Assembly (NCBI GenBank): GCA_052055015.1 | Contig: JBQJIT010000032.1 | Direction: 5' to 3' (one strand) | Origin: Malassezia furfur | Taxonomy: Eukaryota | Length of the DNA stretch: 48,237 bases | Shown: piece by piece, positions 390-48,000 of the stretch | Layout: every line of letters starts with the position of its first letter | Numbering within the stretch: position 1 is the first letter of the stretch | The notes under the pieces: generated by a model | Databases searched by the model: none | Seen by the model: the letters and a program-made list of their open reading frames with translations, nothing else | What the model was told of the DNA's origin: nothing | Made by a program: the position numbers and the translations under genes

Positions 390-1322
390 ATGAAGGTGGC
401 CGTGACCCAGATGACGAGCGGCGGCGCGATCCGCGAGAACCTCGCGACCGCCGTGCAGCTCGTGAAGCGCGCAGCGCTCGCGGGTGTGCAGGCCGTGTTC
501 CTCCCGGAGGCCACCGACTTTATCGCGACGCCTGATCGCGCTGCCGAGCTCACACGCAGCGACGACAACCGCGCGTTTGTGCAGGGCATGCGCGACGCCG
601 CGCGCGAGCACGCCGTATGGATCAGCGTCGGCGTGCATGAGTCCTCCGAGACAGACACAAAGCGCTGCTACAACACCCAGCTCTTGATTGACCAGCACGG
701 CACCATTTGCGCACAGTACCGCAAACTGCACCTCTACGATGTCGACATCCTCAATGGGCCCTCGATCCTCGAGAGCAACACCACAATCCCGGGCGACAAG
801 CTTGTTCCCCCCGTCGATACGCCGCTGGGGCGTATAGGCGTACGTGTAACTGTCGCTAACCCAGCTCCTGACTTGCTACGACATGCGTTTCCCCGAAGTG
901 TCGCTCGCGCTGCGTCGCCAGGGCGCACAGTTGATCACCTACCCGTCGGCGTTTGCTCTTCGCACGGGGGCTGCCCATTGGTCCTTGCTTCTCCAAACGC
1001 GTGCCATCGAGACGCAGTGCTACGTCCTCGCCGCGGCCCAAGTCGGTATGTTTCGTGCACCCATTGACTCAGGCTTGCATCTAGGCACCACACGGTCTTC
1101 GTACGTGTTTTTTCTAACGCAGGTGGGGCCATGCGATGATCGTCGACCCGTGGGGCACCGTGGTCGCGCAGTGCAGGTGCGCCGACGATCTCACGCAGCG
1201 ATATGCCGCCCTTTGCACCGACATTCTGCGTGGCCGACATCGACCTCGAGGGGCTGGAGCGTGTACGCACGGATATGCCGCTCTGGAACCAGCGCCGGAC
1301 CGAGATCTACCCGGAGCTGTGA
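390..1322 (+). CDS. Nitrilase-family carbon-nitrogen hydrolase (Nit1-like deaminated glutathione amidase), 5 exons
   Basis: Catalytic motifs FLPE, YRKLHL and CYDMRFPE, plus RAIETQCYV and [10 protein letters not shown]. Removing introns 840-864, 1046-1072, 1101-1122 and 1177-1198 gives a continuous protein ending in YPEL*. Confidence 0.9.
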
Positions 1323-1394
1323 CACATAGCCGCCCCCGTAGATCCCAAGTGGCCCGAGCATATTTTGGACACAGCGACTCCACTTTAGTCCCCC

Positions 1395-2645
1395 ATGACC
1401 GCTGCCCCCTTGATCATCGAGTAAGCTGCCGCGCATGGGCTGACCCGCAGTACCGACCCCGGCGTCGACGACCTCCTTGCGATTCTCCTCGCGCTTGGAT
1501 CACCCGAGGTCAAGCTCGAGGCCGTCACGCTCACGTTTGGCAATACGACCCTCGACTATGCGTACGACAACATGTTCCGTCTGGCCAATGCACTCCAAGT
1601 CACGGCAGAGAGCAACGCGTTAAACAACGACACACTGCGCGATCGTGTGCTGAATGGCGTTGATGGTCACCCCGTGCCGATCGCCATGGGCGCAACTAAG
1701 CCGTTGGGCGGCCGCCTGTTTACTGCGAGCTACTTCCACGGTCGTGATGGTATGTCGGGCGTCTCCTTCCTCCCTGATGACCCCTTCCCGAAGGCGACGC
1801 ACACAAACCTGTTCGTTTCTTCCCCCACACCTGCCGACGAGCTGATCCTGGAGGTGCTGCGCAAGCATCCGCCCAATACGGTCCGCATCGCAGCGGTCGC
1901 TCCGCTGACCAACCTGGCTTCGGCTTTCCTCAAGGACCCGGACACTTTCCGCCGCGTTGGCTCGATCAGTATCATGGGCGGTGCGCTCGATGTTCCCGGA
2001 AACACGTCACCCACTGCCGAATTCAACTTCTTCGCTGACCCGTGGGCCGCCAAGGTACTGCTCGAGGACGCTGTAGCGAACGGCGACCCACCGCTGCCCG
2101 TCTACCTCTTCCCTCTGGACATTACGTCGGACCACACTGTGCCCTATTCGGAGCTCGTGCGCGATGCGGACGATGAGCAGTATAAGCGCAGCAACCTCTT
2201 CCAGCTGATTTCGCTCTTTTTGCGCAAGCCTCGCGCGGTGACCAACTCGTTTGCGCCGCCCGAGGTGACGTTTGACGCCTCCAAGTACGATCTGTTCCAG
2301 GCGCACGACCCGCTGGCCGTCGCACACGCCATCTGCCCCGACAACCCGGGCTGGAAGTGGGAGGAGCGCCCCTTCCTGGTGGAGACCGAAGGCAAGCTGA
2401 CGCGTGGCTTCTGTGTCGTGGACCGTCGCAACCATGGCGCGGCCGTCAAGGGCCGGAACAAGGCCGAGATCGAAGAGGTGCGTGGGCCGACCAACGAGCA
2501 CGGCCTCGACGGCCAGCCGGAGGCCAAGAAGCAGAAGACAGGCCCGGTGATCCCCGAGGTACCGCTGGTCAAGGTCGTGAACCAGACGCCGGGCATTCCT
2601 TGGTTCGCCAAGACGTTCTTGGAGCGTCTCGGATACCAGTCGTAG
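1395..2645 (+). CDS. Inosine/uridine-preferring nucleoside hydrolase (Urh1-like)
   Basis: ATG 1395 and a 30-nt intron (1421-1450) give IIDTDPGVDD. The protein also has GN, HGRDG, PLTNLA, MGG, GNxxPTAEFNFFADP and HDPLA motifs. Confidence 0.9.
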
Positions 2646-2677
2646 CGTACTATGCATGAAGGACTAGGTGTCTACCA

Positions 2678-3286
2678 TCACACACCAGGCGGACGGAATC
2701 CCGGCGGTGGTGGTGCAAAGCCGGGTGGCGGACCCACGGGCATGCCCGGGGGCGGCGGCATACCCATCGGTGGGCGACCCATCAGCGGCGCCATGCCGAG
2801 GCCAGCGCCGCGGCCCGTCGGCACACCCTGGCCGGGGCCGGGGGCCATGGGGGCCTCCTGCTTCGGCTCCGGCGGCGGCGCCTCGACGCTCAAGCTAATG
2901 ATAGTCTCGCCGCGCAGGATCACGAGTCCTAATGTGCGCTTTTGCTCCTGCGCGGGCGCAGGCACATCGTCCTCCTCGTCGTCATCCTCGACATGGCCCT
3001 CAGCGGTGTCGCCATGCGCGACCTTTTGTTTCTTGTTCGGCTTATTCGCCTGCTTCTTTTTCTTGGGCTTTATCTGACGGAATTCCTCCGCTGCGCGTCA
3101 GCATCTCCCAGTGACGTACTATTCGACAGCACCAGGTTCATAAAAGTATCGAACGCCAGCAGCTGGCCCGTCATCTGCCGACCGTCATTGAGCGTCACGC
3201 GCAGACGGTAGTCAATCAGGGCCATCATACGGCCACCCTTGGCCTTGACTGGCGGCTGCTGGTCAGTAGGCCGCGCGACGTACCAT
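2678..3286 (-). CDS. SMB1: Small nuclear ribonucleoprotein SmB
   Basis: Sm1 motif YRLRVTLNDGRQMTGQLLAFDTFMNLVL, Sm2 motif RTLGLVILRGETIISLSVE and a Pro/Gly-rich tail. The first exon is ATG only. Introns are 3259(or 3256)-3283 and 3091-3119. Confidence 0.92.
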
Positions 3287-3334
3287 GTTCTCTCCACCGT
3301 CGTAGGACGCGACGAGATGCAAACCGGGCAGCGT

Positions 3335-3352
3335 CACGTGGAACTCCACGTG
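3335..3352. promoter_or_regulatory. Tandem CACGTG E-boxes in the SMB1/aminotransferase divergent promoter
   Basis: CACGTG at 3335 and 3347. The same motif recurs in other divergent spacers. Confidence 0.55.
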
Positions 3353-3428: not shown

Positions 3429-4882
3429 ATGCCGCTGGACCTACCCAGTCTCCTGTCGCAGTCCTCGTGTGACCGACCGCTGTCTGCGATCCGTGGACTA
3501 CTTCCGCTTGAGAGTCGTCCTGGTGTGATCTCGCTGCTCGCGGGGAAGCCGAACCCTAGCGGATTCCCGTTTGACTCCATCACGTTGCGGCTCAAGCCCT
3601 CCGTCGAGGGCAGCAAAGATGCCCAGGGCAACCCCGTGGAAATCACCATCGATGGCTCGGAACTTGAGCGTATCCTGCAGTACGGAAGTACGAACGGCGA
3701 TGTGACGCTTGAGAGGGAGCTCACCAAGCTCATTAGCCGCGTCCACCACCGCACGCGCAACAACGGCCAGCCCGATGGCGACTTTGCGCTGGCCATTGGG
3801 TCGGGCAGCCAGGACCTTCTGTACAAGACGATCTCGATCCTGTTCAACCCGCAAGATACGGTGCTTGTTGAGTCGCCCGTGTACCCGTACGTGTAACAAC
3901 TGACGCCAGCGGTTTCCTTCCAGAACTCGAGACGCATCGGGTCAAGGCGGTGGGCATCTCCACCGATGAACAAGGTCTTTCGGCGCAGGCTCTGCGCGAT
4001 ACGCTCAAGAACTGGCACACTTCCGACACTACCAAAGAGCTCCGGTTCCCCAAGGCGCTGTACACGGTGCCTACGGGCGCCAACCCGGCGGGCACCACTG
4101 CTTCCACCGAGCGCAAGCGTGAAATTCTCGCGATCGCGCGCGAGTATGGATTGCTGGTGCTCGAGGATGATCCATACTACTTCCTGACCTTTGAGGACAT
4201 GTCTGAGGATGCTCTGCAGCAGAAGCGCGCGCTTAGCTACTTCGCGCTCGAGCGCGAGGACGCGGATAAGTGGGGGTATGGCTACGTGCTACGCTTCGAG
4301 AGTTTCTCCAAGATTCTCTCGGCAGGCATGCGCGTTGGGTTCATGGTGGGTCCTCCGACGCTAGTCAACGCCGTCGTGGCCCTCACTGCGTCGTCCAACC
4401 TGCACACAAGTGGGCCGGCGCAGGCCATGGCTGGCGAGCTGATGCAGTACTGGGGAACCGACGGTTTCCTGCGACACACACACAACGTCGCCCGGATGTA
4501 CAAGGAGCGTCGCGATATGTTTGGCCGCATAATCGACACCATTCTTGGACGTGGCGAGGACGGAAAACAAACACCGATCGCGACGTACGTGACCCCCGTC
4601 GCCGGCATGTTTTACTGGATCAAGCTGCATCTTCCGCCCACGGACGGCGCGCCTGAGGGCGACTCGTACCGTGTCATCTCGGAGAAGGCGCTTGAGTTTG
4701 GTGTCCTGGCCATGCCAGGAGGTGCCTTCTTTGCCGACAAGCGCAAGACGCCGTATGTGCGCACATCGTTCAGCCTGATCGAGCCGCAAGACGCGCATGA
4801 GGCCATCCTGCGTCTCCGTCGCGCCGTGGAGAGTGCTTGGAAGGATGCTGGATACGATGAGATCCCTGCAATGCAGACATAG
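3429..4882 (+). CDS. PLP-dependent aromatic amino acid/2-aminoadipate aminotransferase (Aro8-like)
   Basis: Motifs ISLLAGKPN, LQYG, NPAG, EDDPYYFL and PLP-lysine motif SFSKILSAGMRVG. A 23-nt intron (3887-3909) joins ESPVYP|GFLP. Confidence 0.9.
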
Positions 4883-4883
4883 T

Positions 4884-5151
4884 CTACTCTTCCTTTTCTT
4901 GTGTTGCCTCATTTTCCCGATCGACCTGGTCGAGTGCGGCCATGAACCTGCGTTAGTAGAGGGACGTACAAGGAGGCTTGGCCGATCCCTAGATCCTTCA
5001 TGTACGCTGCCTGTTCGCTTGCAATGGCCATGTAGTGCTGTGTATGTTCAAGCGTGTTCGACAAAGCGGCGATGCGCGACGCGAGGTAGGCATAGTGCCG
5101 CTCCTTGGCCGACGTCAGCGCCGTGCCTCCACTGCTCGACGCGTGCGCCAT
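4884..5151 (-). CDS. HSK3: DASH/Dam1 complex subunit Hsk3-like
   Basis: KERHYAYLASRIAALSNTL...ASEQ...MKDLGIGQASLFMAA after removing a 22-nt intron (4948-4969). This resembles the Hsk3 LG...SLFMAA pattern. Confidence 0.75.
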
Positions 5152-6566: not shown

Positions 6567-6571
6567 GGTAT

Positions 6572-9500
6572 CTAGTGAGTTGGGTGCAGTGCGGAAATCT
6601 GTTCCCTTTTCTCGACGATCAGCAGCGTCTTGTCGTGTTCGTAGGCGTCGTCCTGGCGAGACAGCACGCGCAGGCCGTCGCCATGGAGCGTCTGACAAAG
6701 TTTTCCCGTCAGCGGGTCGCGTACTTCGATGAGCGACTCATAAAAGGCCAGTACGTAGTTCGAGACGAAGGCCACGCGCGACGGACGGCCTTCCCAGTGG
6801 AAGACGGCGTTGAGACGGACAAGGCGTCCCATCACGTCGGTGTAGCACGCCAGACGGTCGTAGCAGAGCAGGATCAGCGTGTCTGTCACGTAAAAAGCGC
6901 CCAGCGGCTTGGCGTTTTCGAGCTGCCGAAGCATGGCCCAAGCTTGGGCATCATCGCGCGACTTCACCGACGGCAGTAGTTCGAGCGACTCCGAATCGAG
7001 GCTGTACGTTTGGAACCCGCGGTGCGTGTACACCACGAGTGCATGTCGTAGGAACTGGGCACCGGTCGCCTCGTAGCCCACGTAAAACTTTTTGTACTCG
7101 CGGAAGTGGGAGAGCGTCTCGGATGGACGGCGGCGCCATAGTCCCTTGCCGTCGTCGTGGCGCTTCGTACGCGGGTCAATCGGCTCGAGGATGCGCACCG
7201 ACGTCTCACTCGTACGTTTCTTGCCATACACCAGTAGCTGGCGCCCGTCGATGCGCCCGGTCGCAAAGAAGAGTACCTCGCGATTGCCGCTGATCTTTTG
7301 CGGTGCAAAGCTCGAGGGCGTCGAGCGGCTCGGCACAAGCGCGTCGAGGTCGTAGGCGATGAGCGCACGATCGGCGAGAACGATAAAGTGGCCGAACTGC
7401 TCCATGACGGCACATTGCGTCACGCCACGTAGGTGCAGCACTTTGTTAAACGACTGTGGCTGGCCATAGATGCCGATCCACACGCCCTCGCTCGTGCCGA
7501 CGGCGAGCATCTTGGTCTGGTCCTGGTCCTGCAGGAAGAAGGGCGTCGCATACGTTACCTCCAGCTGAGCACCCGGTTGTGAGTGTACCTGCAACCGGAA
7601 ACACAGTGGCGTACGCTCCAGTAGTGCATGTGCCGCTTCCTGCTCCTGCACCCGCGCGGCGACCGAGAGAAAGTGCTGATGCCACTCGGCGCGCTTCTGT
7701 GCCGTGGGCACATACAGCACGATGGGGTCGCCGGTGGGGAGATGCAATGAGAACGGGAACATGTCCGTCAAATCGCCAGGGAGCAGCCGCCGGTTCAGAT
7801 GACCGCGCGACAGGGGCGGCTCTTCAAAGCCCGACGGGGCGAGGAGCGCAACGGGGATTGGCTGGGTAAGTAAGCAGAGCAACGTACTTTTTTGCTGTAC
7901 ACGAGCCGGACCTGGCGCTCTTCTGTATTCTGGCCACCCTCGGCGTCCGTGGGCGGCTTGCGCTTGGCCAGCACCAAGTAGTTGTCAAAGAGCAGCGCCT
8001 CCATCTCGGTCCACTCGAACTCAAAGCCGTCGGGTCGCCGGAAGACGACGCCGTGGTGCAGCAGCTTACGCTGTGGGTTCTGCAAGTCGAGGTCCGCCTC
8101 GCTCTCGGCGCGCTTTGGCTCTAGACGTGCGGCAAACTCGTCGACCTGCAGGCGCTGCTCGGCTGCTTCGACGCCAGCCTGGGCCACCTTGCACTGCTCG
8201 TCAATGATTTCGGTCGCGAGCGCCAGTTGCTCGCGGTCGCTGCTTTCCGCATCGGAATACTTGGCAATGGACTCGAGGTGCAGGTGGTATCGTTGCAGCC
8301 GTGCGGGCGGACGGAACAAAAAGTTGTCTAGCGGATGGCGGTGCGCCGCTGGGTCGCGACGGCAGTCGTCGGCGAACTTGGCCATGCGCGCGTTGGTCGC
8401 AATTTCGCGCTTGAGCGTGTGCAGCGCAACAGGATAGTGCTGCACGTATGCAGTGTAGGCGGGGCCCCATTCCAGGGCCGCCTCAACGACCAGGTCGCCG
8501 AGCGACTCCACCATGGGGTTCTGCTCCCGCTGGCGCTCCTGCAGCCGGTCACAAAACGTCGCAATGTGAGAGAGGAGCTCGGCATAGTTTCCAAACACAG
8601 TCGTGATGAATGAGTCCAGAGCCGCACCCGAGAGCGGCGCGGTGCGTGCCATCCCCACGCCACTCGACTGGGCCAGCGCACGCAGACGGTGTGCGTACTG
8701 GTCCAGGAGCTGTAAGTCTTTCAGGAAACTCTCTTCCTTTTGGATCATCTCGTGGATCGCGTTCTGGCGCTCAATCTCGCGGCGGGGCAGCGTCGCGACC
8801 AGCTCGGCAGGCACCGTCTCCACCCAGGCCTTGGCGGCGGTGCTGCCCGGGTCGGCGTCGTCGGCCGCATCGGCGACGCGCAATGCGGCTGCATTCCACG
8901 CCCGTCCTACGCGTGGGCAGCTCGGGACGTAGCAGCTGACATGTGGCGGCGTCGACAGCCCACATGTGGGGCTGTAGCAGCGTGTGAGCGGCGCCAAGAC
9001 GCCGCTCGGCAGGTCCTGCACGGATGCGCCGACACATGCGAGTGCGGCCTGCGGTCCGAGGCTGACGACGTTGGGCGACTGCCGCACAAATAGCTCGCCC
9101 TCGACTGGAACACCCTGAATGGCAGGCACGTCCAGTTTATCGCTGTTGGCGCCGTCGGAGAAGAACATGTACACTTCGTCGACGCCCGCGCTCAGAGCAT
9201 GGTCCTCCCAGTCCGCTTCATGAATAAAGAGCTGTGTTTTGAATGAGCGCGCAATGCTCATGGCCATGTAGTGCGCATGTGCCTCGGGGATGTCGAGGCC
9301 AAATTGCGCGCAGGTCCGCACGTACTGTGTGATGATCTCCATAATGGCTTGCACGACCATCCGCCCCGTGAAGCTCAGGGGGTATACGATGCTGCCCTTG
9401 ATGAGTGGCCGGCGCTTCAGCGTGCAGATAAGCAGCTGCGCAATCTGAGACAGGCGCGCCATGTCGACCGATGTGCCTTGCAGCACCGCCGCCGCCGACA

Positions 9501-28093: not shown

Positions 28094-28132
28094 ACAGCTA
28101 GCATTGGCTCGTAGTACAGACGTTTTGCTAAT

Positions 28133-30190: not shown

Positions 30191-30227
30191 GCGAGGAAAG
30201 ACGACAGCCCGATCCCGATCTACCTGT

Positions 30228-31474: not shown

Positions 31475-31680
31475 GATGGAGAATGCTGACAGCCTCCGCG
31501 AGCCGAGATCGCGCGCGCTCGGGCCCCGCGTGTGTGGGTGGCGTATTCGCAATATTTTTGCTCCGCCGCGTGGCCTCCACCGTTACCTATGTAATCACGT
31601 GCGGAATGTAGTTTTGCGTGGTAAGGGCGAAGGTCTGCTGCTCAGCGCTCCGCACCTCCGTCCTCAAGCTCTGGATCAAG

Positions 31681-31763
31681 GTGCGTATAGCGAGGCGCTT
31701 TGCGCGCCGGCGCAATCGAACAGGATACTAACACACCGCGTGCTATACGCGACGTATCTACAG
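31681..31763 (+). other. Predicted 5'UTR intron of RPL24 (83 nt) with a self-complementary donor
   Basis: GTGCGT donor after CAAG, TACTAAC at 31726-31732 and a CAG directly before ATG 31764. Confidence 0.7.
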
Positions 31764-32674
31764 ATGAAGGTCGAAATCTGCTCGTTCAGCAACAAGAAGA
31801 TCTACCCGTACGTACGACGAGAAACAACAGGACGCTAACCGTCAGGGGCCACGGCAAGCTGTTCGTCCGTGGTGACAGCAAGGTGTGTACTGACGAAGTG
31901 CAGGTTCGGCGTATACCGTGGGTGCGATGATGCGCAGACACAGACGAAGAATGACGTGCAGACGCGCTCACGTACGACGATGTGTACAAGGGAGTTGGAT
32001 CGTGCAATACACTGGGGGTGCACAACACATTCACACGAGTGGTTTCTGCCGCGACATTGTACACGCCTCTACTCCCTTTCACACGCCGGACTGAATGTGT
32101 TCGAGCGGTTTGTCGAGCAAGGGTGTACCAAATGAGAAGAGCATCCTCTGCGTATGTTTCTTCTGTCCGGAAGAAACGAGGTGCTTGGACAACTGCATCC
32201 ATGTCTGTACACGCACTCTCTCTCTGTCTGTGTCTGCGTGCACCCTACGCATACCGTCGCCTGTCTTTCCCCCTGTAACCGATACTAACCGCGCAGGTGT
32301 TCCGCTTCATCTCGTCGAAGTCGGAGTCGCTCTTCCACCAGCGCAAGAACCCCCGTAAGATTGCCTGGACTGTGCTGTACCGCCGCATGCACAAGAAGGG
32401 TATCTCTGAGGAGGCCGCGAAGCGCCGCACGCGCCGCACCGTGAAGCACCAGCGTGGTGTTGTGGGTGCGAGCATCCAGGACATCCAGTCGCGCCGCAAC
32501 CAGAAGCCTGAGGTGCGTGCCACGCAGCGCAAGGAGGACCTCGCGCAGCGCAAGGCTGCCAAGAAGGAGCGCAAGGCGGAGCGCAAGGCCAACAAGGCCT
32601 CGCTGCAGTCGACCGGTTCTCAGATCTCCCGTCAGCAGGCCAAGGGCGGCGCGCGGGGTGGTCTCAAGGCTTAA
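31764..32674 (+). CDS. RPL24: 60S ribosomal protein L24 (eL24)
   Basis: MKVEICSFSNKKIYP|GHGKLFVRGDSK|VFRFISSKSESLFHQRKNPRKIAWTVLYRRMHKKG. Introns are 31808-31845 and 31883-32296. Confidence 0.96.
31900..32264 (+). ncRNA. Candidate structured intronic RNA (unclassified) in the RPL24 intron
   Basis: Multiple long complementary segments: 31932-31945/32226-32239, 31920-31925/32240-32245, 31988-31995/32071-32078, 32024-32033/32092-32101 and 32156-32163/32170-32177. Confidence 0.55.
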
Positions 32675-34774: not shown

Positions 34775-36609
34775 CTACATACTGGCGCGCACCACACCGA
34801 GCATACCACGGATACGCTCGGTGGGCGTACCGAACGCCAGGCGCACGAGGCCGTGCAAGACTGGGTGAGACACACGACGTACAGGTCCAGCTTTTGGCCG
34901 TGTCGCGCACGGGATAGTCGACGACGGGCGGGATGGACGTCTGGACGATGCCAAACGCCCAGTCCTCGGTCATCGCCTTGGGCCGCGTGAGGCCCAGCAG
35001 GCCCTCGGGGCCCGCAAAGCGGCCGTACCCACTATCCTTGCATCCGCCGAACGGCAGGCCCTGGTTCAGGTAGGAGATACCAAAGTCGTTGATGTTCACC
35101 ATTCCACACTCCAAACGTGCGGCAACCTCGTGGCACGTCGCGCGGCTCGGGCCAAATACCGAGGAGCCCAGGCCGTACGGCGTGCCGTTCGCGATCGCCA
35201 CTGCCTCGTCCACCGTGTCGTAGCTCATCACGAGGAACACGGGCGCAAACAGCTCCTCCTGCGCAATCTTCATGGCGGGAGTGACGTGCGTCAGCAGCGT
35301 CGGTGCAAAGTAGTAGCCCAGCGGCCAGCGCCCATGGCGCACGCGGTGCCCGCCGAGCACGAGGCGCGCACCATGCTGCACGGCGTCGTCGATCAGCGCC
35401 TCGAGCTCGGCAAAGCGCGCGTCGCTGATCATCGCGCCGCAGTCCACCGCATCGGCCCCCGGGCGGTGCGTGCCGAAGCGCGTCTCGTCCAGCGTGCTGC
35501 CGCACCGCAGCGCCGCGATCCGGTCGCGCACCACGCCCACCAGCGCATCGGTCTGGTCGCGCGGCACAATGAACCGCTCGATCCCAATGCAGTTCTGGCC
35601 CATCGCCTGGAAACACGCGCGGAGGAACATGGACGCAAAAAAGGCAAGGTCGGTGCCCGGCAGAATCACCGCGGGGTCCTTGCCGCCCAGCTCGAGAGTC
35701 GTCGCGGTAAGCTGCGGCGCCGCCGCGAGCGCCACGGCGCGGCCGACGCGGTCGCTGCCGATGAACGTGAGGTGGGCGAGGCGCGGGTCGCGCGTGAGCG
35801 ATTCGGCGTGCTCTGGTGCACACACAACAAGCTGCACAAGCTCGGTGGGCAGGCCGCATGCCGCGAGGCACCGGTGCACGCCGAGAATCACCTGCTGCGA
35901 CGTCCACGCGACGTGCTCCGAGCACTTGACCAGGATCGCATTCCCTGCAAACACGGCCGCGATGATCGGGCCAAGCATGTTGTGCACGGGGTAGTTCCAC
36001 GAGACACACGCCGCGACCACACCGAGCGGCTCGTGCACGACCGTGCACCGCTTGTGGGCGAGCAGTAGGTTGCCGCTCCGCGTCTCGGGCCGAAGCACCT
36101 TTTCGCCGTTCGACAGCGTCCAGTTCAGCTTGGCACACGTAGTGAGCAGCTCGCCGAACGCGGCATCGATCGCCTGTGTGAGCACGCGATGGACAACGTA
36201 CCGTTTTGCCTGTGTCGCGGCACGCAATGCGCGCGAGCGTCTCCATGTCGCGCATGACCCATGCGCGCAGCGTGCGGAGAAACTGGCGGCGCTTGGGCCA
36301 TGACGCGGCGCGCAGCGCGCCCTGTGCCTCCGCCGCGGCCGTGATCTTGGCGTGGATGGTAAGCGGGGTGTCGGCCTCGAGCGTGTCGATCACGAACCCG
36401 GTCGCCGGGTCCACACAGAAGACGCGGCCATCGGCGACGACGGGCGGCGCAGGGTCGGGGCGCAGCTTGCCCTGCCAGCCCGGACGCGCCTGCTCGGGAT
36501 CCACGGGTTCGATCGTGGGCACCGCAAGCTCGCCCCAGGGCCAGAGCAGCCAGGCCGCCGCCAGCACCGCGAGCACCGTCGCGACACACCCCTCCACCGC
36601 GTACGACAT
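34775..36609 (-). CDS. Aldehyde dehydrogenase, Msc7/ALDH22-like with N-terminal TM anchor
   Basis: EPLGVVAACVSWNYP, FIGS, LELGGKD, GQNCIGIER, EELFAP and PFGG. Introns are 36174-36201 and 34861-34882. Confidence 0.88.
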
Positions 36610-36655: not shown

Positions 36656-37771
36656 ATGGAGGCAGCCGCGCGGGCCACGTTTGAGGTCCAGAACGACGTG
36701 GTGGCCCTGGACGCCGAGACGCGGCGCATCTACGAATTTGATGCACAGGCGTACCAGCGCCTGCTACGCGAGGCGCCATGGCGCGCCGACCCGCACTTCT
36801 TTCGGCGCGTGCGCATCTCTGTGGTGGCCCTGATGAAGATGGTCCTCCACGCGCGGCTCGGCGGCGCGAACGAGGTGATGGGCCTCATGAAGGGCACCGT
36901 GTGTGCTGAGACGCACACGTTCTACATTCTGGATGCATTCGCACTGCCCGTGCACGGCACCGAGACGCGTGTGAATGCACAGAACGAGGCGTACGAGTAC
37001 ATGATCCAGTACCTCGAGCAGGATCATGCCGTGCATCGTCCGCAGCAGGCGGTCGGCTGGTACCACTCGCACCCTGGCTATCGGTGCTGGCTGTCGGGCA
37101 TCGACGTCGAGACACAGCAGACCAACCAGCAGCAGGACCCCTTTGTCGCGGTGGTGGTATGTGCGCCATGCACTGACGCAGATCGACCCCCACCATACGA
37201 TGACGACCGGCAAGGTGGACATTGGCGCATTCCGCACCTTCCCAGCGGACTACCGTGCCGAGGAGCGTGCGTCGCAGCACACTTCACTGCCCACGCACAA
37301 GGCCGAGGACTACGGCGCGCACGCCGATCGCTACTATGCGCTGGACGTGGAGCTGTTCACCACCTCGGCGGAACGTCCACTGTTTGCGCTGCTGTGGAAC
37401 GAGTACTGGGCACACACGCTATGCTCGAGCCCGTCGCTGCTGCAGCGCATGCTGAGCCTCCAACACACCAACGAGCTCGTCACTCAACTGTCCCAAGCCC
37501 GCGCCAGAATCGCGAACGCCGGCATAATCCCCGGCGGGGCGTCGTATACCCAGGCAGGCCGCAGCTCGGCCAGTGCCCATACCACCGAGCCTGCCGAGCA
37601 GCTAGCGGCGGCGCTCGAGCGGCGCGCGGCGGAGCAGCCGCTCGCCAAGCTCTCCACCGAAGCGTACGTGCCCGCGACTCACCCAGCGACCACCAGGCGG
37701 CGCATGCGTGGCTCGAGCTGCTGCGCGAGACGCTCAAATCGTCCGTGTTTGGTCCGGTAGAGGAGGAATAA
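36656..37771 (+). CDS. RRI1: COP9 signalosome subunit 5 (JAMM deneddylase)
   Basis: EVMGLM, ALPVHGTETRVNAQNEAYEY, GWYHSHPGYRCWLSGIDV and VAVV|IDP. Introns are 37157-37181 and 37664-37686. Confidence 0.93.
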   Translation: MEAAARATFEVQNDVVALDAETRRIYEFDAQAYQRLLREAPWRADPHFFRRVRISVVALMKMVLHARLGGANEVMGLMKGTVCAETHTFYILDAFALPVHGTETRVNAQNEAYEYMIQYLEQDHAVHRPQQAVGWYHSHPGYRCWLSGIDVETQQTNQQQDPFVAVVVCAPCTDADRPPPYDDDRQGGHWRIPHLPSGLPCRGACVAAHFTAHAQGRGLRRARRSLLCAGRGAVHHLGGTSTVCAAVERVLGTHAMLEPVAAAAHAEPPTHQRARHSTVPSPRQNRERRHNPRRGVVYPGRPQLGQCPYHRACRAASGGARAARGGAAARQALHRSVRARDSPSDHQAAHAWLELLRETLKSSVFGPVEEE

Positions 37772-37834: not shown

Positions 37835-39466
37835 TCATGACGCACCCTCCGCCTCGGTGCTCTCCTCGCGCAAAGGGTTCGGCGACGAGTCGGGGGCCGA
37901 GCCGAGGGGGAGCACCGAGGGGCGCGGGTGGCCGTGCCTCGCGTAGAGGTCCACACGGAGCATCTCGAGGGAGTGCGACTCACCGGCCTCGTCGGTCCAG
38001 CGGCCAAGGGCAATATCCTGTTCGGTGATGACGGCGTTCGGGAAGGTGTTCTTGGCCCACTCCAAGACGTAGGCACTCGCGCGCATAAACTTCTTGCTGC
38101 TGTACTTCTTGTGGAAGTGGGCGTGCGCCGGCGGGCGCAGGCAGTAGTCCAGCATGATCTCGGCCGTGCCGAGCAGCTCGTTCTCGGCGTAGGTCGAGTA
38201 GTGTACGAGCGTCGGCGTCCACTCGCCGCGCTCGAGCACCTCGCGCGCCATCCACACAGCGGCGGCGGCGATCAACGAAGGAGGGTGCTCCATCAGCCGG
38301 TGGTCCACCAGCGAGATCTCCATAAAGTACTTGGCGACCGTGCGGGTCTGGATATCATAGTTGTCCGCCTTGGAGATGCGACGCAAAAAGTTCATGGGCG
38401 AAGCATAGCTCAGGTCAAAGTTGAGCACCTTGAGCATGTAGCGTTCCGCACGCAGAATCTCTTCGTCGGTATAACCGCCGTCTGCCAGGTACAAAAAGTT
38501 TTGGATCGAGGGGCACAGCACCTCTTCGTATTTCGCCGCAATGAACAGCGACGTGACACCCACGAGTTGCAGCTTCGAGAGCGAGATGGTGCGGAGACTG
38601 AGGAAGCGGTCCACCACGTTCAGCGCGAGGAACAGCGTCTCGGGGAGCAGACGGAACTTGGAGTGCGTCTCGATCAACCAGTCGGCGAGCACACCACGCA
38701 GGTGCCAGTTCAGGTCCCGCTGCATGCTCATGTAGTCGCCGTTCGGCATGCACTGCAGCTCGATCTGCCGCATGTACGCAAAGATCTCCTCGACGTACTC
38801 GGCAACCATCAACGGGTCGTCGATGTCGTCCTTGTCGAGATCCTCCCATCCTTCGTCTTTCGCACGCACGGGCGCCGCCTCGGCGACCTTGGCACGCTTT
38901 GTCTCGCGCACCTCGGTGGCCTCGACACGCTCCGCGGGCTGCTGGGTATGCACATTCTCCTTGTCACTCTCGTCGCGCGGCGCCTCATCGATCATCATCG
39001 CCTCGGGCGCCTCATGCTTCGCACGCAGCACACAGCGCGTGGCTGCGCTGCGCGTCGGCATCTGGGTCGATCCCGCGCGCGTCGGCAGCGAGCTGACCGT
39101 CGCGCGCGTCCGCGGCGGCTTGGCCTCCTTCTCGTCCGCGGCGCTCTTCTCGCCGGGCTTGGATAGTGCGGCGGTGCGCGCGCGCGTCGCATTCGTCAGG
39201 TCGCCCAGGGCGGCCCGCTTTCGGATGCCGAGTACGCCCGAGGCCGCGCCGTTGGGGCGCGTCGGCGCACTCTCTGTGCTAGCCGAGGCCGCTTTGCTTT
39301 TCCCGAGCACATCTTTGGCAGCGCCAGCGCCGCCAGCCGTGCGGAGCGGACGGTAGGTATTCGCGTTTTCGTCTGTTTTGGACGCAGCACTGCGCGTGCG
39401 TACCGGCGCGCGGCGGACAGGCTGTGGTCAGCGGCGCGTGGGCGGACGTACCAGGTTGGACGACAT
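37835..39466 (-). CDS. B-type mitotic cyclin
   Basis: D-box RAALGDLTN and cyclin box DPLMVAEY...RGVLADWL...LLPETLFL...KLQLVG...AKYEE. A 30-nt intron (39422-39451) follows MSSNL. Confidence 0.93.
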
Positions 39467-40408: not shown

Positions 40409-41333
40409 ATGAGCGAGGCGCCTGTCCCACGCGCCGGTGCGCCTGCACGGCGCGGGCGACCACCTTTGTCGTCGTATCCGACTGCTGCCGGTATCAGTCG
40501 AGGAGCTTCAACCGCATGTATGTATCACTACTCTTAAACAGCTCCGCGGCGCGCGCGCACCACGACAGGTGGCCCACCCCGCAAACGAGGTCGGCCGCCC
40601 CGCACGGCGGCTCCGCCAACTGAGGGCCACTTATCCCCCGAGTCCACGCAGGTGCTCAGCGAGACCACACCAGCATCCTATGTTCCAAAGCAGGAAGCTA
40701 TAAAGGCGCCGCTCAAACGGTCGCGTAGCGCAGAAGCGACGACGCCCCCTGCGTTGGTATTCCAATGCGCACGTTGCTCCACTGTCGTGAGTGACTCGTT
40801 CTCGTGGATCATGGCACAGCGCCAGCTATCTATGATTGTACTGCGGGAGGCGACAGACAAAGTCGCGGTCATTGAACCGCCCATCACAAGCAGTGAGCCT
40901 GGGCCTACGCTAGGCAGCAGTTATTCGGTACTCCGATGCGAGCAGTGCATGCACCACCTCGGGCGGAAATACCACGAGACGCCACCTGAGCTCGAGGAGC
41001 TTTGCGGAGCGTTTGCATTCCACGTCGATGCGATCATTGTGTACGTGTCACCTGCTTACCCACAGGTACCAGTTGGGCACAACGTCGGCTTCGGGCCATC
41101 CGACCCATTCGGGCGTGCCAAAGCACAGCCCCCCGCTCATGGGTAGGCGCGAACACGACAAGTGGTCTGGGAATACCAGTCCTAAGGCTCCAGATGAGCC
41201 ACCGAATGAGATGGACAAGGTTCGAACGCTACTTATGGTGCTTGGGGAGCGCCTCTTGCGCGTCGAGCAGCACCTGCAACTCGACCCTCTGCCATCCCCT
41301 GATCCAAACGACGATTCACGCGCCAGTCCCTAA
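40409..41333 (+). CDS. MIS18: Mis18 (Yippee-like Zn domain + coiled coil) with N-terminal AT-hooks
   Basis: VFQCARC...SDS, LRCEQC...LGRKY..TP and IIV|YQLG, with a C-terminal helix. Introns are 40518-40541 and 41041-41065. Confidence 0.8.
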
Positions 41334-42873
41334 TTTTGATGGGAGAGATACGTCGCGTAAAGCTGGTCCACGTATTCCGGATCGGTCTGTATACCCGTTA
41401 GCCCCTTACTCTCGAATGAACGTACATAGAGGAGAGTGACCATCGTTTGCACGAATTCCATCCGACTCAGGTGTTTGGACCGCTCAGCCAGGCGTTCGGG
41501 GGCTTTGCCAGTAGCGAGCAGGGACAAGAGGTTCTGCGTCTGGGCCGCGCGCGCCTGGCTCTCTGGGCCCGCCGTTGGCGTAGACTCGGCGGGCTGCGTC
41601 GGCACTGGAGACGTCCCGCGGCTTGTACGCGACACACTCGCGGTGGATGTCTCCATCACATCCTTCGGGATGCTCTGCTCAGCTGCAACTGTGTGCTGCT
41701 CGTCATTCTTGGGCACGCCAGCCTCCTTAGCAGCCTCGACAGTGTCCGCCGTATCTTGGGACTCGAGACTTTCTAGCGGACCTTGCTCAGTCGCATCGAT
41801 GAACTCTTCTTTTTCCTCTGCTGAATCGTCGCCAGTCTTGCTGGGTGTCTCGTCGTATCCATCCTCCGAATACCCATCTTCCTGGCCCCGCTGGTCGACA
41901 TGCGCCGCCTTGTCTCCCGGAGTCTCGGCACGTTTGTCTGACGGCACAGCCGTCGCCTTGTCCGTGCTCTCTTCCACAGGTCGTTGCGGCATCCCTGGTG
42001 CCGAGCCAAACAGCGCATCGAGGCTAATGGATTCGGCGCCCGGCGCGCGCGCTTCTGGTTCAGTCGAGGCGCGCGTCTCGCCGCTGGTCTGACCCGAGGT
42101 AGGGTCAGGGTTGATTGGCGCCGGCGCCGACTGTTCTGAATCGGTCGTCTCGGTTTTCGACGCACTGGCTTGCTTCATCCAGTCCTCGGACGGCGCAGCA
42201 TCGCGGAACAAGGCATTAAGTATCGAAGCACCGTTGCGTTCCGACTCGGTGAACGCGTGCACAGGCTGTGCCTCTTTTGTGCCGGCTTCCTCTGGCGTCT
42301 TGTTTGAGCCGAAAAGCGTGTCCATGTCGACCGACTGCATCTTACCCTCGCTCTCCGGCACGGGCGGAGGTGGGTAGGGAGAGTGCTGACATCTGGGTCA
42401 GTGTCGTATGCGTACTTTTGGATGGTTTCCCCCAACTGCTTGAGTTGGGACGGCTCAAAGACCCAGATTCCATAAATGTCAGACTCTTCACTGTCCGCAT
42501 CATCTGGACATGAGTGTGCGGGGTCGTACCTGCATGTTGCGGCCGATAAATGATGAACTCGTCGCTCATCTCAATATCGTCGTCAGGGGTGATGCCAATC
42601 GAGAAGTTGTCGGGATCATTGCGATTGAGGATCTTGAGGCCATAATACGGTGCCTCAGAGCTAGTGTGAGCCGACACTTTTGCGCCTACCGTTGGTAGAG
42701 GAACAATGGTCCTTCTGTCCCCGTTTTGGTCTAGGTCAGCCATGAACACGTACCCATTCTTTATCGTAACTGTACAGAACCGCAAATGATGCGGCCGCCG
42801 TAATTGTCGCAAACTTGGGATCAAATCGCCGCAGAACGCGCGAATTGAGTTCCCACCGCGCGTCGAGATCCAT
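41330..42873 (-). CDS. DCP1: mRNA decapping enzyme subunit Dcp1 (EVH1)
   Basis: LNSRVLRRFDP...AVLYSY..EW|TKTGTEGPLFLY...ILNR...NF...FIIYR...IYGIWV. Introns are 42731-42753, 42661-42689, 42504-42529, 42393-42415 and 41387-41425. Confidence 0.88.
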
Positions 42874-43222: not shown

Positions 43223-44972
43223 ATGTATTCTAATGCTCAGGGAAGCAATAGGCAATCCCCAAAGCGAAAATCGCATGGCTTTGAACCCGCTTCCACCTCC
43301 GACATGGGTCAAGCGCCCAACAACCAAGGTTCCAATATACCCATGGGAAATGCCAGCTACATTGACATGGATCTTCTTCTGAATAATGAGCTCTGGAGAC
43401 ACATTACTCCTCCGCAACAGGCACATGCCCCGGAAACAGAATTTTCTCAGGGCATCCCCTTCCAGCGAACATTTCCTGAGGCTCACAACATGTGGCATGG
43501 ACCTCGCCAAGAGGCCGTGGAATCGTTGCATCCTACACACCACGGATTGTCGGCACCGGCGTCCCAATCCTCCATTGCATACGAACGCGCAGGGCCGACT
43601 ATGGAACGGGACGCGGCTTATTCTTTGCCACAGCAAAGGTCGAATGAACCGCTACCCGGCCGTCCGTTCCCGGGCGCAGAGGCCAACGTTCAAAGCATGC
43701 CGGCTGCCTCGAGCACATTTGCACATCCGCGCCAAAAACGGTTTGTGGAAGATCATGGGGTGGCCATGGTCCCCCCTGACGTACACCCTACCGTGGGCTC
43801 GGCGCCACCCAATTTCATGACGCCATGGAATATACAGCACATGCGGTCGCGTGAAGGAGTTCATCCGACTCCGAGGGACCATGCCAAACCCTACCAGCGT
43901 CGATCCAGTGGAGATGCCGCAGGCGGTGCCTCGCACACGTGGGTGCATTCGCAGATGCGGCCCCATACGGGGCGATCCAACTCGGAAGACTATGTTCGGG
44001 AACTGGACGATTCGATTCCATCGGATAACGACAATGCGGAAGAGCTAGACTCGATGCCGTCAACGCTGATGTCTTCGAATGACTCGGAAGCCAAAAAACT
44101 GCTGGACAAGCGCCGAAGACGGCGCGAGTCCCACAATGCCGTCGAGCGTCGCCGTCGGGACAACATTAACAGCCAAATGACTGAGCGTACGTATGATCCC
44201 GGAACACTGACCCAGTCGCTACGCTGCTGCCCGAAACCATGTTACTCGATGCAATAACGTACGTCTTCTTCACTCACACGACAGGACCTCGACGCAAGGC
44301 GGCAACAGCGCATCGTGGACGTTTGGACCCGAGACGGCGGCCAAGGTGGCACGCAGTCGTACTGGTCTCGGCTCGTGGCGTACCATTGGCAATGAGACGC
44401 AGGTTCAGGACCCCGCGTTGAACCAAAGCCGTGGCATTCCCAAGGAGTCGTGCTTGAACATGCCCTCATTTACCAGTTTCGCAGCCGCATTATCGCCTGT
44501 TGACGCAAACAACCCTGCACTGGCTGCAGCGCAAGCGAAGCCCAACAAGGGCATCATTTTGCGAAAAAGCGTCGAGTATGTGCGCCAACTCCAGCAATTC
44601 CTGGATATGCAGATGCGCCGCAACCACATGCTTGAGCACGAGCTACGGCAGCTGTATGAAGCCAAATGGCGTGAGTCATCAATCGCGTCCGGGAGTAGCG
44701 AGTCGGCGATACCCTTCTCGTGGTCATCGGCACAGGTGCAGCAGCAGCAGCAGCAGTCGCAGCAGCCGCAGCAGCAACAGCAGCAGCCGCAGCAGCAGCC
44801 GGCGTCACTGCCGCTGCCGTCACAGTCACATCTGTCCTTCCCGTCGTCGCCCGGCGCCGCGAGGAACGAGACAGGCGGAACGGACACAGGCGTGCCACAT
44901 GCTGTACCTGAATACTCTTCGCCTGACCGAGCCATGTATGGAATGAAAAATGATCTCGGCGAGTCGTCATAG
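43223..44972 (+). CDS. bHLH-ZIP transcription factor (Rtg3/MiT-TFE-like)
   Basis: RRESHNAVERRRRDNINSQMTELATLLP ... KPNKGIILRKSVEYVRQL followed by a zipper. Introns are 44187-44215 and 44259-44284. Confidence 0.85.
44739..44798 (+). repeat. Interrupted (CAG)n poly-glutamine tract
   Basis: Visible CAG run encoding QQQQQQSQQPQQQQQQPQQQ. Confidence 0.9.
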
Positions 44973-45077
44973 GGAGGGTCGTACCTCGCCGGACCTAATA
45001 TAGACCCCCCACTCTCCCCTTAGCAATTTACTTTTCTACACACCTCCATTCGACGCGACGCGCTGCTTCGCGACGCG

Positions 45078-48000
45078 ATGGACGCGTGGGACGACGAGGC
45101 GCTCGATGACTGGTACGCGTCGGACGTAGCTTCCTCTGCCGAGGACTCTGCCGCTGAGCAGGAGGCGGCGAGTGAGGCATCTGAGGCTGGCGAAGTCGAC
45201 GATGACGCGCGCCTGGACCTGCTCCGCCCGCCCATCCTGTCTATCTGTGCGGCGCTGGGCGGCTACGAGCACGTCGACGTGGACGGGCGTCTGGAGCTCG
45301 TGTATCGGCTTGGAGATGATTGTCTAGGTACGTTATATGCTCACACAGAATGCCTGCGAGATCTGCGGCGTCTCTGGCGCCAGGACGACACGGACAACAG
45401 TCGTGCGGTCGCGCGTGTCTTTGCCGAGCTGGGCACGCTGCACAACGACCTGATCCCCATCCTGCTGCACACGGCGGGTATGGGCGAGAAGGCGGACAAG
45501 ATTGCGCTTGCGTGCAGTACGTCGGCCACCCACTGACCGCAGCCGACTTGATTACGGCGCTCACCTGGCCGATCGACTGGAACGCCGAGGTGCACGACAT
45601 TGTGACGCGTGAGGAGGAGGAGGACGGCGTGCTGTCCAAGCTGGTTGGTCTTCAGGCCGCGCAGGTGCAGTATAAGGCATCGGTGCTGCGCGTGCGCGCC
45701 AAGGAGCAACGCCTCGTGAGCCGGACGGTGGTCGGGTGCGTGATGCGCCATTTGCTGCTGCCTGCACTGGCCAAGCCGCGTGTGGACCGCACGGAGCGCG
45801 ACACGGGGCTGATCGGCATGTGCCTTCACCTCTTCCGCAACCTGCTCGCGATCCGCGACCCTGTCGCGCACACGACGAGCAGCGCGGCAGTCGTGGCCAA
45901 CGCGACGCTGCAGAGTCTGCTCGTGGAGCAGCTCGAGGAGCACTTTGTGCTCGACACACTGTTGATGCTCGCAAGCAACGCCGACACCAAGGAGTACGAG
46001 GCGTGGGTGCCCGTCGCGGCCGACTGTGTGTACCAGCTGTACATCGGCTCGGACGTGCACGAGATCGCGACTGTCGAGGCGGCGACGACGCGTGCGTCGT
46101 CGCATGCGCTCGCCGCCTCGCTCGACCAGGAGGCGCGGCAGAAGCGGCATGGCGTGAACAATGCGCGGCATTCGCGCTTCGGCACCACGATCCAGTTCCG
46201 CGCGCACGACGGATCGCTGCGCGTCGCGCGGCGTCCCGCGGCGCTGGTCGAGTCGGTGCGCCGCCTGGAGCAGGGCATTGCAGACCGTGGGCGGCGCAAG
46301 ATCTCGCGCAAGCGCCGCGCGACCGAGCGTGGCGCGCCGCAGCGCTACACGGCGTGGACGAGCGGCGCGCGCGCCGTGCTCCGGCGGTGGGCCGACCGGT
46401 TTGTGCAGGACGGCGCGTTTGGGGTGCTGGAGCAGCAGTACCTCAAGGACATCCACGCCGAGCGCGAGCGAGTCGGCGATCTGGATGCGGCGCGGTGCAA
46501 GGCACTGCAGCTCGCGACCTTCTTCCTAGACTATTTCCGCGCGCGGCGGGCGCACGACGCGGCGGCGTTTGGCTTCGGGCTCGTTGCCGCGTGGCTCGAG
46601 CCGTGGGCGTTCCGCCTGTCGCGCAGCCGCGCGGCGATGGCGCTCGAGGCGAAGCAGTGGCTCGAGTTTGTGGCCGCCGTGCGCCTGTGGACGTCGCTGC
46701 TGTGCCTCTTGCACGCGCTCGCGCACGGCTCCTCCGAGGAGCGGCAGGTCGCCGACGAGCTGCAGAACACGCTGTACTACGACGGCGACCTGCTCGACAC
46801 GAGCCTGCAGGTGATGCACGCGTACACTGCACAGAGTTTCGCGTGCCTTGAGGCGGTGCTCGACTTTGCGTACACCATGCCCCGTCTCCTCGAGAAGCAC
46901 GCGGCGCAGCACGAGTACGTGTTTGTCAAGGCGCGCCACGGCGGGCAGGACGATGAGGAGTCGGTGTCGCGCAGCGAGCGCCTCTTCCGCTTCCAGACCT
47001 TCCAGCGCGCCATGGCCACGACGCGCCTCGCGCATGTGTGCACGCAGTACCTCGTGCGCTGGGCCGACTCGGCGCAGCCGCGCACGATGCTACCACGCCT
47101 CGCGAGTGTGGTGCACCGCATCACCGTCAAGGCCGAGCGCCCCGCGCTCTTCTTTGCGGCCAAGACGCGCGAGTTGTGGGTGCGCCTGCTGCGCGGCGGC
47201 GACCAGGCGCTCGCGGCGTGCGACGCCGAGGCTGCCGCGACGCTGGTCAAGCTCGCGCGCTACATTGAGCGCCAGTTTGCCAAGCTCGACGGCGCACTGC
47301 AGGAGGCGTTTGACGCGAACAAGCGCCCGGCGCGCGCGCCCAAGGCGGACAAGATCCCCGCCGAGATCTGCGTGCGCCCGGGCCTCGAGCACAGCGAGCA
47401 GATCGGCGTCGCGGTCGGCCTGCTTGCCGAGGAGCACAAGCTCGCCGAGGTCACCTGGGTCAAGTTCCACCTCGAGCTCGCGAGCGCCGCACGCAAGGCG
47501 CTCATGGCGTCCGACGCAGACGCGGACCCCGCGGCCCCGAGCGCCGCGGTACAGGAGCAGTTTGCTGTACACCGTACGTCGCCTTGCTGACCCAGCCCTC
47601 ACGACCGACTCGGATGCGGTGCGGACCGAAGTCACGCGCAACCCCGCGCTCAAGCTGCTGCTGCGCCTCGTGGGCCTCGAAGCGAGCGTCGAGGAGGCGC
47701 ACTGGGTGTGGAGCGTGCCGCGCAGTTGCACGCCCGCGTCGCTCGATCGCGACGCACGCATCATCGACCAGTACCTTGCGCAGCCGCTCCTGATCGAGGG
47801 CGAGCTGCGCGACCAGGTGCAGCGCGTGCGCGCCCCTCGCGCGCGCACCGACGCGCCAGGCGACGCAGCGGACGACGCCGAGCGGCCGCGCAAGCGTGCA
47901 CGCCCCGACGCCGACGGCCGCCCGGCGAAGAAGCGCGCGCCGCGCATCCCCCGCTGGCTCGACAACGAGTTCATCGAGGACAGTGACGAGGAGCTCGCAT

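Follow-up and report, generated by a model that had tools for sequence, protein, structure and literature searches.

Very short GT-AG introns with a branch site anchored near the acceptor in a gene-dense Malassezia furfur contig

Genes and introns of the window

The stretch of DNA analysed here, called the window in what follows, comprises 48,237 nucleotides (nt) of the Malassezia furfur contig JBQJIT010000032.1 (GenBank assembly GCA_052055015.1). It has a G+C content of 56-71%, it is densely filled with eukaryotic genes, and many of these genes are interrupted by very short introns starting with GT and ending with AG, which are the subject of this work. The genes concerned encode, among others, a NIT2-like nitrilase, GUF1, Rae1/Gle2, the ribosomal protein RPL24, TOF1, Dcp1, SmB, CSN5, a diacylglycerol acyltransferase (DGAT) and an aldehyde dehydrogenase (Table 1). 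When the largest GUF1 exon was compared with the NCBI proteins, 99% identity was found to 'GUF1 [Malassezia furfur]', the next matches being other Malassezia proteins (72-89%) and then those of smut-like fungi (about 60%). Likewise, over the part that aligns, the NIT2 query shares 99% identity with the NIT2 proteins of M. furfur at NCBI; for the TOF1 query, identity to the corresponding NCBI M. furfur model is 93%, the two differing at two junctions. These protein matches identify the window as nuclear DNA of M. furfur or of a very close relative. A search of the whole window against Rfam returned no matches and no small nuclear RNA (snRNA) gene, and no tRNAs were found either.

An independent rebuild of the gene models, in which 42 candidates were curated by hand and 2 were rejected, led to the acceptance of 40 GT-AG introns between positions 840 and 47595. 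One of them is 21 nt long, nine are 22 nt, six are 23 nt, seven are 25 nt, five are 26 nt, one is 27 nt, one is 28 nt, four are 29 nt and two are 30 nt, while the remaining four measure 38, 39, 42 and 414 nt. In other words, 36 of the 40 lie within 21-30 nt (37 if DGAT intron 1 is taken in its nested 21-nt version), none within the window is shorter than 21 nt, and the modal length is 22 nt (9/40). Very probably, these segments are spliceosomal introns of the ordinary U2 type (GT-AG) in a Malassezia yeast, shrunk to near a lower size limit. The initial annotation of this DNA had counted 42 introns, with 38 at 21-30 nt and nine of exactly 22 nt. Compared by totals only, the nine 22-nt introns are recovered, whereas the two other figures come down to 40 and 36. 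The span that it gave is also that of the present set, from the first intron (840-864) to the last (47574-47595), and the four examples that it cited, 1101-1122 on the plus strand and 4948-4969, 23385-23406 and 28580-28601 on the minus strand, are all present as written, each with 22 nt, a GTAYG donor, a CTNAC branch and a CAG acceptor.

For the gene models, a codon-usage score was trained on 13 long open reading frames of the window, and all GT..AG pairs of 15-150 nt with open, coding-like flanks were listed. The frame-shifting solutions clustered at sites, each of which held one short canonical intron. A parse relying on codon usage and GT..AG ends only selected 12 canonical introns, 11 of 22-29 nt and one of 38 nt. 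As this coding-only parse also merged adjacent genes through false introns of 200-400 nt, it was replaced by a splice-motif-weighted model, whose donor and branch weights were trained on those 12 introns and whose output was then curated by hand.

The motif GTACG-N7-17-CTNAC-N1-4-AG was counted 28 times in the window, whereas 100 dinucleotide shuffles give an expectation of 0.59, an excess of about 47-fold; the shuffle counts had a standard deviation of 0.74 and a maximum of 4, and none of the 100 reached 28. The 28 matches correspond to 27 sites, all of them (27/27) on the sense strand of modelled genes. As computed from the gene models, 33 of the 40 introns are not multiples of three and 11 contain an in-frame stop; the seven multiples of three, to be set against the one third expected, are too few to claim a depletion.

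Boundary evidence independent of the splice motif

For 18 of the 40 introns, the boundaries are supported without recourse to the splice motif, namely four in NIT2, three each in TOF1 and Rae1, two each in GUF1 and RPL24, and one each in CSN5, DGAT, the aldehyde dehydrogenase gene and Dcp1. This support comes from homologue alignments, from the residue numbering of solved structures, from Pfam coordinates obtained on single exons and from whether related contigs have or lack the intron. In each of these 18 cases, removal of the segment restores a continuous conserved reading frame.

In NIT2, a model with four introns (25, 27, 22 and 22 nt) and two micro-exons (28 and 54 nt) aligns collinearly with 17 homologues, two of which are bacterial and serve as intron-free comparators, and the homologue alignment leaves no space for the nine residues that intron 2 would encode. 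In GUF1, intron 1 interrupts a universally conserved motif of the G domain that is unbroken in 14 of 14 homologues. At the 21-nt TOF1 site, the nine non-Malassezia homologues shown have no residues (P0254 only starts just before the site), and the TOF1 segment 45517-45542 is retained in one homologue model. The RPL24 gene contains the sole long intron of the set, after which exon 3 begins about where the Pfam L24e match (positions 27-66) begins; this 414-nt intron carries the same kinds of signals as the short ones, and Rfam run more loosely on it gave no match. Its first 21 nt resemble a complete mini-intron whose use would break the reading frame. As for Rae1, searches of solved structures with its last two exons (38 and 34 residues) returned nothing usable.

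A second line of evidence comes from related contigs. Metagenome contigs were scanned with the GUF1 exon, giving seven loci, of which L001, L003 and L004 (79-82% protein identity) were aligned with the window; this comparison at the DNA level covers positions 26100-32400. Wherever a contig is intron-free at one of the five GUF1 and Rae1 sites, the flanking codons are joined precisely at the predicted boundaries (Table 1), and this exact absence fixes the five introns to the base and independently of any annotation. L001 and L004 have both RPL24 introns at conserved positions. The intron content of the three contigs differs sharply: of the five GUF1 and Rae1 introns, none occurs in L004, four occur in L003, where they measure 45-71 nt and one includes a long run of T, and two occur in L001 with 23-24 nt. 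These differences indicate that intron loss and shrinkage vary within the genus. The same alignments show that the true first exon of Rae1 reaches farther upstream than modelled here, since 31335-31401 is coding in the related contigs.

Besides, the homologue alignments bring to light errors in public protein models. The NCBI M. furfur GUF1 model P0001 loses four conserved residues, as it would if an AAG located 12 nt downstream were used, giving a 34-nt (28568-28601) instead of a 22-nt intron. For M. furfur NIT2, model P0123 agrees with the four-intron structure, whereas P0124 retains intron 2 as an insertion and skips the conserved 54-nt exon. Four of the eight public Malassezia TOF1 models shown (P0212, P0215, P0220 and P0222) carry seven to eight extra residues that look like a translated intron of 21-24 nt. 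Minor errors of this type are to be expected by anyone working with Malassezia proteomes.

Such translated segments could be taken to mean that the short segments are not removed at all, being instead inserts that are translated, frameshifts due to sequencing or traces of pseudogenes, with incidental motifs, and two motif-like in-frame candidates of the window (6692-6724 and 7565-7588) are indeed truly coding. This explanation is nevertheless highly improbable, as most of the accepted segments shift the frame and 11 hold in-frame stops, and yet the flanking exons continue conserved domains consecutively, five segments are absent to the base from related contigs, and the motif exceeds expectation many-fold and always lies on the sense strand. 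In the same line, 5271 of the 5350 introns (99%) of the curated M. sympodialis annotation are reported to be supported by RNA sequencing (RNA-seq), with a mean length of 30 base pairs (bp) (PMC5389616).

Table 1. Accepted introns of the window. The first 18 rows are introns whose boundaries are supported independently of the splice motif; the 22 that follow were placed by motif and reading frame or coding logic. Pfam entries give the last and first model positions matched on either side of the junction.
Gene and intron	Position	Strand	Length (nt)	Features and evidence	Related contigs
NIT2-like nitrilase, intron 1	840-864	+	25	Pfam CN_hydrolase 145 then 147	
NIT2, intron 2	1046-1072	+	27	multiple of 3, no stop; 28-nt micro-exon next	
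NIT2, intron 3	1101-1122	+	22	removal aligns conserved segment of the following 54-nt exon (17/17 homologues shown)	
NIT2, intron 4	1177-1198	+	22	GTGCGC donor; homologue alignment unbroken at junction	
DGAT, intron 2	24442-24463	+	22	Pfam DAGAT 178 then 180	
GUF1, intron 2	28580-28601	-	22	Pfam EFG_C 55 then 57; conserved residues kept only with 22 nt	L001 23 nt; L003 70 nt; absent in L004 and L005
GUF1, intron 1	29766-29791	-	26	AAG acceptor; Pfam GTP_EFTU 81 then 82	absent in L001, L003 and L004
Rae1/Gle2	30335-30357	-	23	presence/absence in related contigs	absent in L001; L003 45 nt; absent in L004
Rae1/Gle2	30475-30497	-	23	GTAAGT donor; presence/absence in related contigs	L001 24 nt; L003 71 nt; absent in L004
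Rae1/Gle2	30680-30704	-	25	flanking exons match 7byf_A residues 33-232 and 233-288	absent in L001; L003 53 nt; absent in L004
RPL24, intron 1	31808-31845	+	38	stop inside	longer intron at same site in L001 and L004
RPL24, intron 2	31883-32296	+	414	sole long intron	donor site common to L001 and L004
Aldehyde dehydrogenase, intron 1	36174-36201	-	28	Pfam Aldedh 82 then 85	
CSN5, intron 1	37157-37181	+	25	flanking exons match 4d10_E residues 9-169 and 170-296	
Dcp1	42504-42529	-	26	weak GTACGA donor, CTCAT branch; Pfam DCP1 93 then 92	
TOF1	45328-45348	+	21	shortest; multiple of 3, no stop; homologue alignment	
TOF1	45517-45542	+	26	Pfam TIMELESS 63 then 65; continuous in 16/17 homologues	
TOF1	47574-47595	+	22	stop inside; variable region, alignment continuous with most homologues	
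Nucleoside hydrolase, intron 1	1421-1450	+	30	in-frame stop; otherwise motif only	
SmB, intron 2	3091-3119	-	29	frame shift; exon order fits solved SmB chains	
SmB, intron 1	3259-3283	-	25	motif, stop inside; weak, first exon is ATG only	
Aminotransferase	3887-3909	+	23	stop inside	
DASH Hsk3	4948-4969	-	22	only motif and frame shift	
Rom2-like RhoGEF	7862-7887	-	26	motif and frame shift; links RhoGEF to CNH open reading frame	
BRCT protein, intron 1	13123-13144	+	22	AAG acceptor; frame shift; chosen motif-free by coding-only model	
BRCT protein, intron 2	13325-13349	+	25	motif and frame shift	
Sec1, intron 1	18756-18780	+	25	motif and frame shift	
Condensin Cnd2, intron 1	23385-23406	-	22	motif and frame shift; 21-nt first exon	
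DGAT, intron 1	23875-23916 or nested 23896-23916	+	42 or 21	frame kept by both	
DGAT, intron 3	24755-24783	+	29	motif and frame shift	
Aldehyde dehydrogenase, intron 2	34861-34882	-	22	motif and frame shift; chosen by coding-only model	
CSN5, intron 2	37664-37686	+	23	motif and frame shift; chosen by coding-only model	
Cyclin, intron 1	39422-39451	-	30	motif and in-frame stop; 15-nt first exon; start-codon choice matters	
Yippee-family	41041-41065	+	25	perfect sense-strand motif; weak downstream coding support	
Dcp1, last intron	41387-41425	-	39	multiple of 3, no stop; motif only	
Dcp1	42393-42415	-	23	motif and frame shift	
Dcp1	42661-42689	-	29	GTAGGC donor; 41-nt micro-exon precedes	
Dcp1	42731-42753	-	23	TAG acceptor; motif, stop inside; micro-exon argument	
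HLH transcription factor	44187-44215	+	29	motif and frame shift	
HLH transcription factor	44259-44284	+	26	motif and frame shift; 43-nt exon precedes	

Splice signals and the spliceosome

All 40 accepted introns begin with GT and end with AG. The donor is GTACGT in 27 of them, GTATGT in three and GTACGC in two, the other eight being single variants, so that GTAYGY accounts for 33/40 and position +4 is a C in 31/40. The branch motif reads CTGAC in 16 introns, CTCAC in 11, CTAAC in six and CTTAC in five (CTNAC, 38/40), with one TTGAC and one CTCAT in addition, which brings CTNAY to 39/40. As for the acceptor, CAG is found in 36 introns, AAG in two and TAG in two. Minor, or U12-type, introns are characterized by a rigid ATATCC or GTATCC donor and a TCCTTAAC branch; none of the accepted introns has a U12-type donor (ATATCC/GTATCC) or branch (TCCTTAAC).

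The internal layout is equally constrained. In each of the nine 22-nt introns the branch A is the 17th nucleotide, and in the 21-nt intron it is the 16th. Among the 39 short introns, 23 have exactly 3 nt and 35 have 3-5 nt between branch A and AG, these nucleotides being C in 71% of cases, while the spacer separating the donor hexamer from the branch motif covers 6-27 nt with a mode of 7 (10/39), never falls below 6 nt and has a composition near the genome average. The longest pyrimidine run is only 2-4 nt in 35/39, which amounts to the lack of a pyrimidine tract. Both traits of the anchored branch-point architecture, namely no pyrimidine tract and a short, fixed distance from branch to AG, are found here. 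Counted over the 40 introns, these signals bear out the description in the initial annotation of GT-AG spliceosomal-type introns of 21-30 nt devoid of a pyrimidine tract, and also the donor-to-branch distance that it gave for the shortest introns (about 15-17 nt), in which the branch A lies at position 16-17.

Since these signals are those of the major spliceosome, ordinary splicing is the simplest reading; conserved reading frames are interrupted at exact boundaries, and related contigs lack precisely these segments. Judging from the signals and from the RNA-seq data of sister species, the spliceosome of this strain, too, would excise the segments from RNA. Their size does resemble that of some non-spliceosomal inserts, and one could think of tRNA-type or Ire1-type cutting and ligation, or of ciliate-like DNA elimination. 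Such a route is, however, vanishingly unlikely in view of the invariant GT-AG ends, the strong donor consensus and the CTNAY branch held at a fixed distance from AG. Moreover, neither a bulge-helix-bulge nor an Ire1 stem-loop is needed to explain the features, the same signals flank the 414-nt RPL24 intron, and longer, ordinary introns occupy the same sites in related species.

Several points weigh against the reading of the whole set as ordinary spliceosomal introns. The placement of 22 of the 40 introns depends on motif together with frame or coding logic, four of these having weaker additional support (1421, 3091, 3887 and the Dcp1 micro-exon pair, counted once). Because the weight matrices were derived from introns of this very window, the motif statistics of the final set are partly circular; the dinucleotide shuffle test and the coding-only parse are free of this circularity. 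The motif-weighted model also gave three false positives, 6692-6724, 7565-7588 and 31335-31401, all really coding. Four introns are multiples of three without an in-frame stop: 1046-1072 and 45328-45348, both confirmed by homologue alignments, 41387-41425, backed by the motif alone, and 23875-23916, which fits two lengths. In addition, 39422-39451 and 3259-3283 hinge on very short first exons, and the RNA-seq support comes from sister species only.

Very short introns are a published trait of the genus Malassezia, and the observation itself is therefore already known. The initial annotation was right about the small size, yet it treated such introns as foreign to fungi, whereas the Malassezia literature reports them. 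Introns of M. restricta have been given an average length of 37.2 and a median of 30.0 (PMC9241646), gene prediction in this species required a minimum intron length of 20, then 15 (PMC6473144), and a review mentions 'very short introns' in Malassezia genes (PMC7426719); taking M. sympodialis and M. restricta together, the gene finders had to be run with minimum intron lengths of 10-20 (PMC5389616, PMC9241646, PMC6473144). According to these sources, the M. sympodialis and M. restricta introns belong to the same size class as those of the window and have a similar density of about 1-2 introns per gene, the window introns being slightly shorter (mode 22 nt). The available sections of the M. sympodialis and M. 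restricta papers give sizes, but no donor, branch and acceptor architecture and no spacing limits.

Branch sites anchored near the AG in introns devoid of a pyrimidine tract have been described by Irimia and Roy (2008, PMC2483917) in Yarrowia lipolytica, Trichomonas vaginalis and Giardia lamblia, where a strong WCTRAY branch resembles that of the window introns. The distance from branch A to AG was reported as 2 nt in Yarrowia and 4 nt in Trichomonas and Giardia, against mostly 3 nt here, and the introns of these three species are not short overall, the Yarrowia median being 204 nt (PMC2483917), whereas those of the window are minimised in their 5' half too. Malassezia apparently lies outside the 50-species survey of that paper. 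Within the same subphylum, the intron-poor Ustilago maydis has ACTGAC as its commonest branch hexamer, but in only 11.6% of its introns, whose median is 95 nt and mean 127 nt (PMC2483917). By this contrast, the Malassezia lineage has both shortened its introns and tightened their signals.

Another class of comparators consists of ciliates, microsporidia, dicyemids and myxozoans, which are reported to have introns below 30 nt genome-wide, with a sharp lower bound and, as in the window, a pyrimidine tract that is absent or extremely short (PMC13644364, PMC5014332). Myxozoan introns have a median of 22 bp and those of Paramecium measure about 25 bp (PMC13644364, PMC5014332), while Stentor goes lower still with introns of 15-16 nt (PMC13644364). 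The myxozoan branch signal, though, is described as a few weakly conserved A residues, in contrast to the strict CTRAC of the window (PMC13644364). Malassezia differs from these lineages in being a free-growing yeast with published genetic tools, and it is absent from the exceptions named in the available text of that 2026 paper on the shortest introns (PMC13644364); the wider intron field appears yet to take up the genus. How introns of 21-22 nt with a strict, yeast-like branch site are recognised is a testable question.

Each short intron carries only a strong donor, usually GTACGT, an unconstrained spacer of mostly 6-14 nt and a yeast-like CTRAC branch whose A mostly precedes the first AG by 3 nt, this first AG being the presumed acceptor. 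In the mechanism proposed here, the entire intron would be recognised as a single unit, and what selects the acceptor would be that it lies at a short, fixed distance from the branch, as is the case in other eukaryotes with few introns. The pile-up of spacers at 7 nt suggests a steric floor. During splicing, donor positions 1-6 are occupied first by U1 and then by U6, while the branch motif base-pairs with U2; with the footprints usually ascribed to U1/U6 and U2, about five bases would be left free in a 22-nt intron, a tight fit.

The initial annotation took the same geometry to imply a streamlined or modified spliceosome: some 16 nt between donor and branch A would prevent the usual joint occupancy by U1 and U2, and the loss or change could lie in the U1/U2 small nuclear ribonucleoproteins, in U2AF, in SF3 or in the order of assembly. 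The geometry is as this explanation describes it, the spacer floor is sharp enough to look like a physical limit, and the 3 nt that commonly follow the branch A leave no room for a pyrimidine tract. Besides, the donor consensus in other eukaryotes is GTAAGT and GTATGT, from which the frequent C at +4 departs, and no study of the Malassezia spliceosome or of its splicing factors was found in the open-access literature. An altered spliceosome is a reasonable question but remains doubtful all the same. The window encodes a single spliceosome core protein, SmB, whose match to solved SmB chains is normal, and the same genome has the 414-nt RPL24 intron with the same kinds of signals, so that the machinery would handle more than tiny introns. 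Furthermore, lineages with introns as short or shorter, such as the myxozoans (median 22 bp) and Stentor (15-16 bp), are reported to retain a standard U2 snRNA and U2AF (PMC13644364).

It is similarly unlikely, if conceivable, that a change in early spliceosome assembly within the Malassezia lineage is what permits introns with 16 nt from donor to branch A. Candidate changes would be a U1 5' end matched to GUACGU, the loss or remodelling of factors bridging U1 to U2 or reading the pyrimidine tract, or a replacement of U1 by U6 at a point when U2 is not yet locked in. If this were true, the spacer floor of 6-7 nt would represent the minimal footprint of that machinery, and Malassezia, for which genetic tools are published, would offer a tractable fungal model of the smallest workable intron, one that current reviews of ultra-short introns leave aside.

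Remaining introns, rejected candidates and side observations

Concerning the introns placed by motif and reading frame, a few additional findings bear on individual junctions. In the nucleoside hydrolase gene, the Pfam IU_nuc_hydro match begins at model position 5, about one residue into exon 2, which leaves room for an upstream exon with the ATG. The second exon of SmB corresponds to residues 7-45 of solved SmB chains and the third to their later part, a lineage-specific insert loosening the test of the junction. Across 3887-3909 of the aminotransferase gene, the Pfam Aminotran_1_2 match passes from 101 to 128 after 22 unaligned residues and is roughly continuous. Between the flanking Dcp1 exons, the Pfam DCP1 match has a gap from 37 to 56, which the 41-nt micro-exon fills with 16 residues while keeping the frame. 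As to DGAT intron 1, the GTACGT donor belongs to the nested 21-nt version, whereas the motif-weighted model favoured 42 nt.

Micro-exons enclosed by pairs of tiny introns are found in three genes: 1073-1100 (28 nt) and 1123-1176 (54 nt) on the plus strand in NIT2, 42690-42730 (41 nt) on the minus strand in Dcp1, and 44216-44258 (43 nt) on the plus strand in the HLH gene. The motif-weighted model missed those of NIT2 and Dcp1, which were resolved by hand and with the help of homologues.

Among the candidates that were discarded, 6692-6724 (33 nt), in the Rom2-like RhoGEF gene, codes for a stretch that all 15 aligned homologues (of 150 listed) conserve, and 7565-7588 (24 nt), in the same gene, has an atypical donor and branch and does not form an insertion relative to the homologues. 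The candidate 31335-31401 (67 nt), in the Rae1 gene, aligns as coding in L001, L003 and L004. Longer 'introns' with poor donors were dropped as gene fusions or antisense artefacts, namely those of 120 nt at 44904, 131 nt at 42902, 215 nt at 32631, 242 nt at 34551 and 255 nt at 37591, as well as two near 21000 (304 and 288 nt) and two near 47600 (200 and 172 nt).

Finally, two side observations concern proteins encoded in the window. In the SmB protein (2678-3088, minus strand), the two Sm motifs are separated by an insert of about 40 residues, with many lysines and acidic residues, that is absent from solved SmB chains, and the BRCT protein (13350-15992, plus strand) has a central tandem repeat of a five-residue acidic unit in about eight copies.

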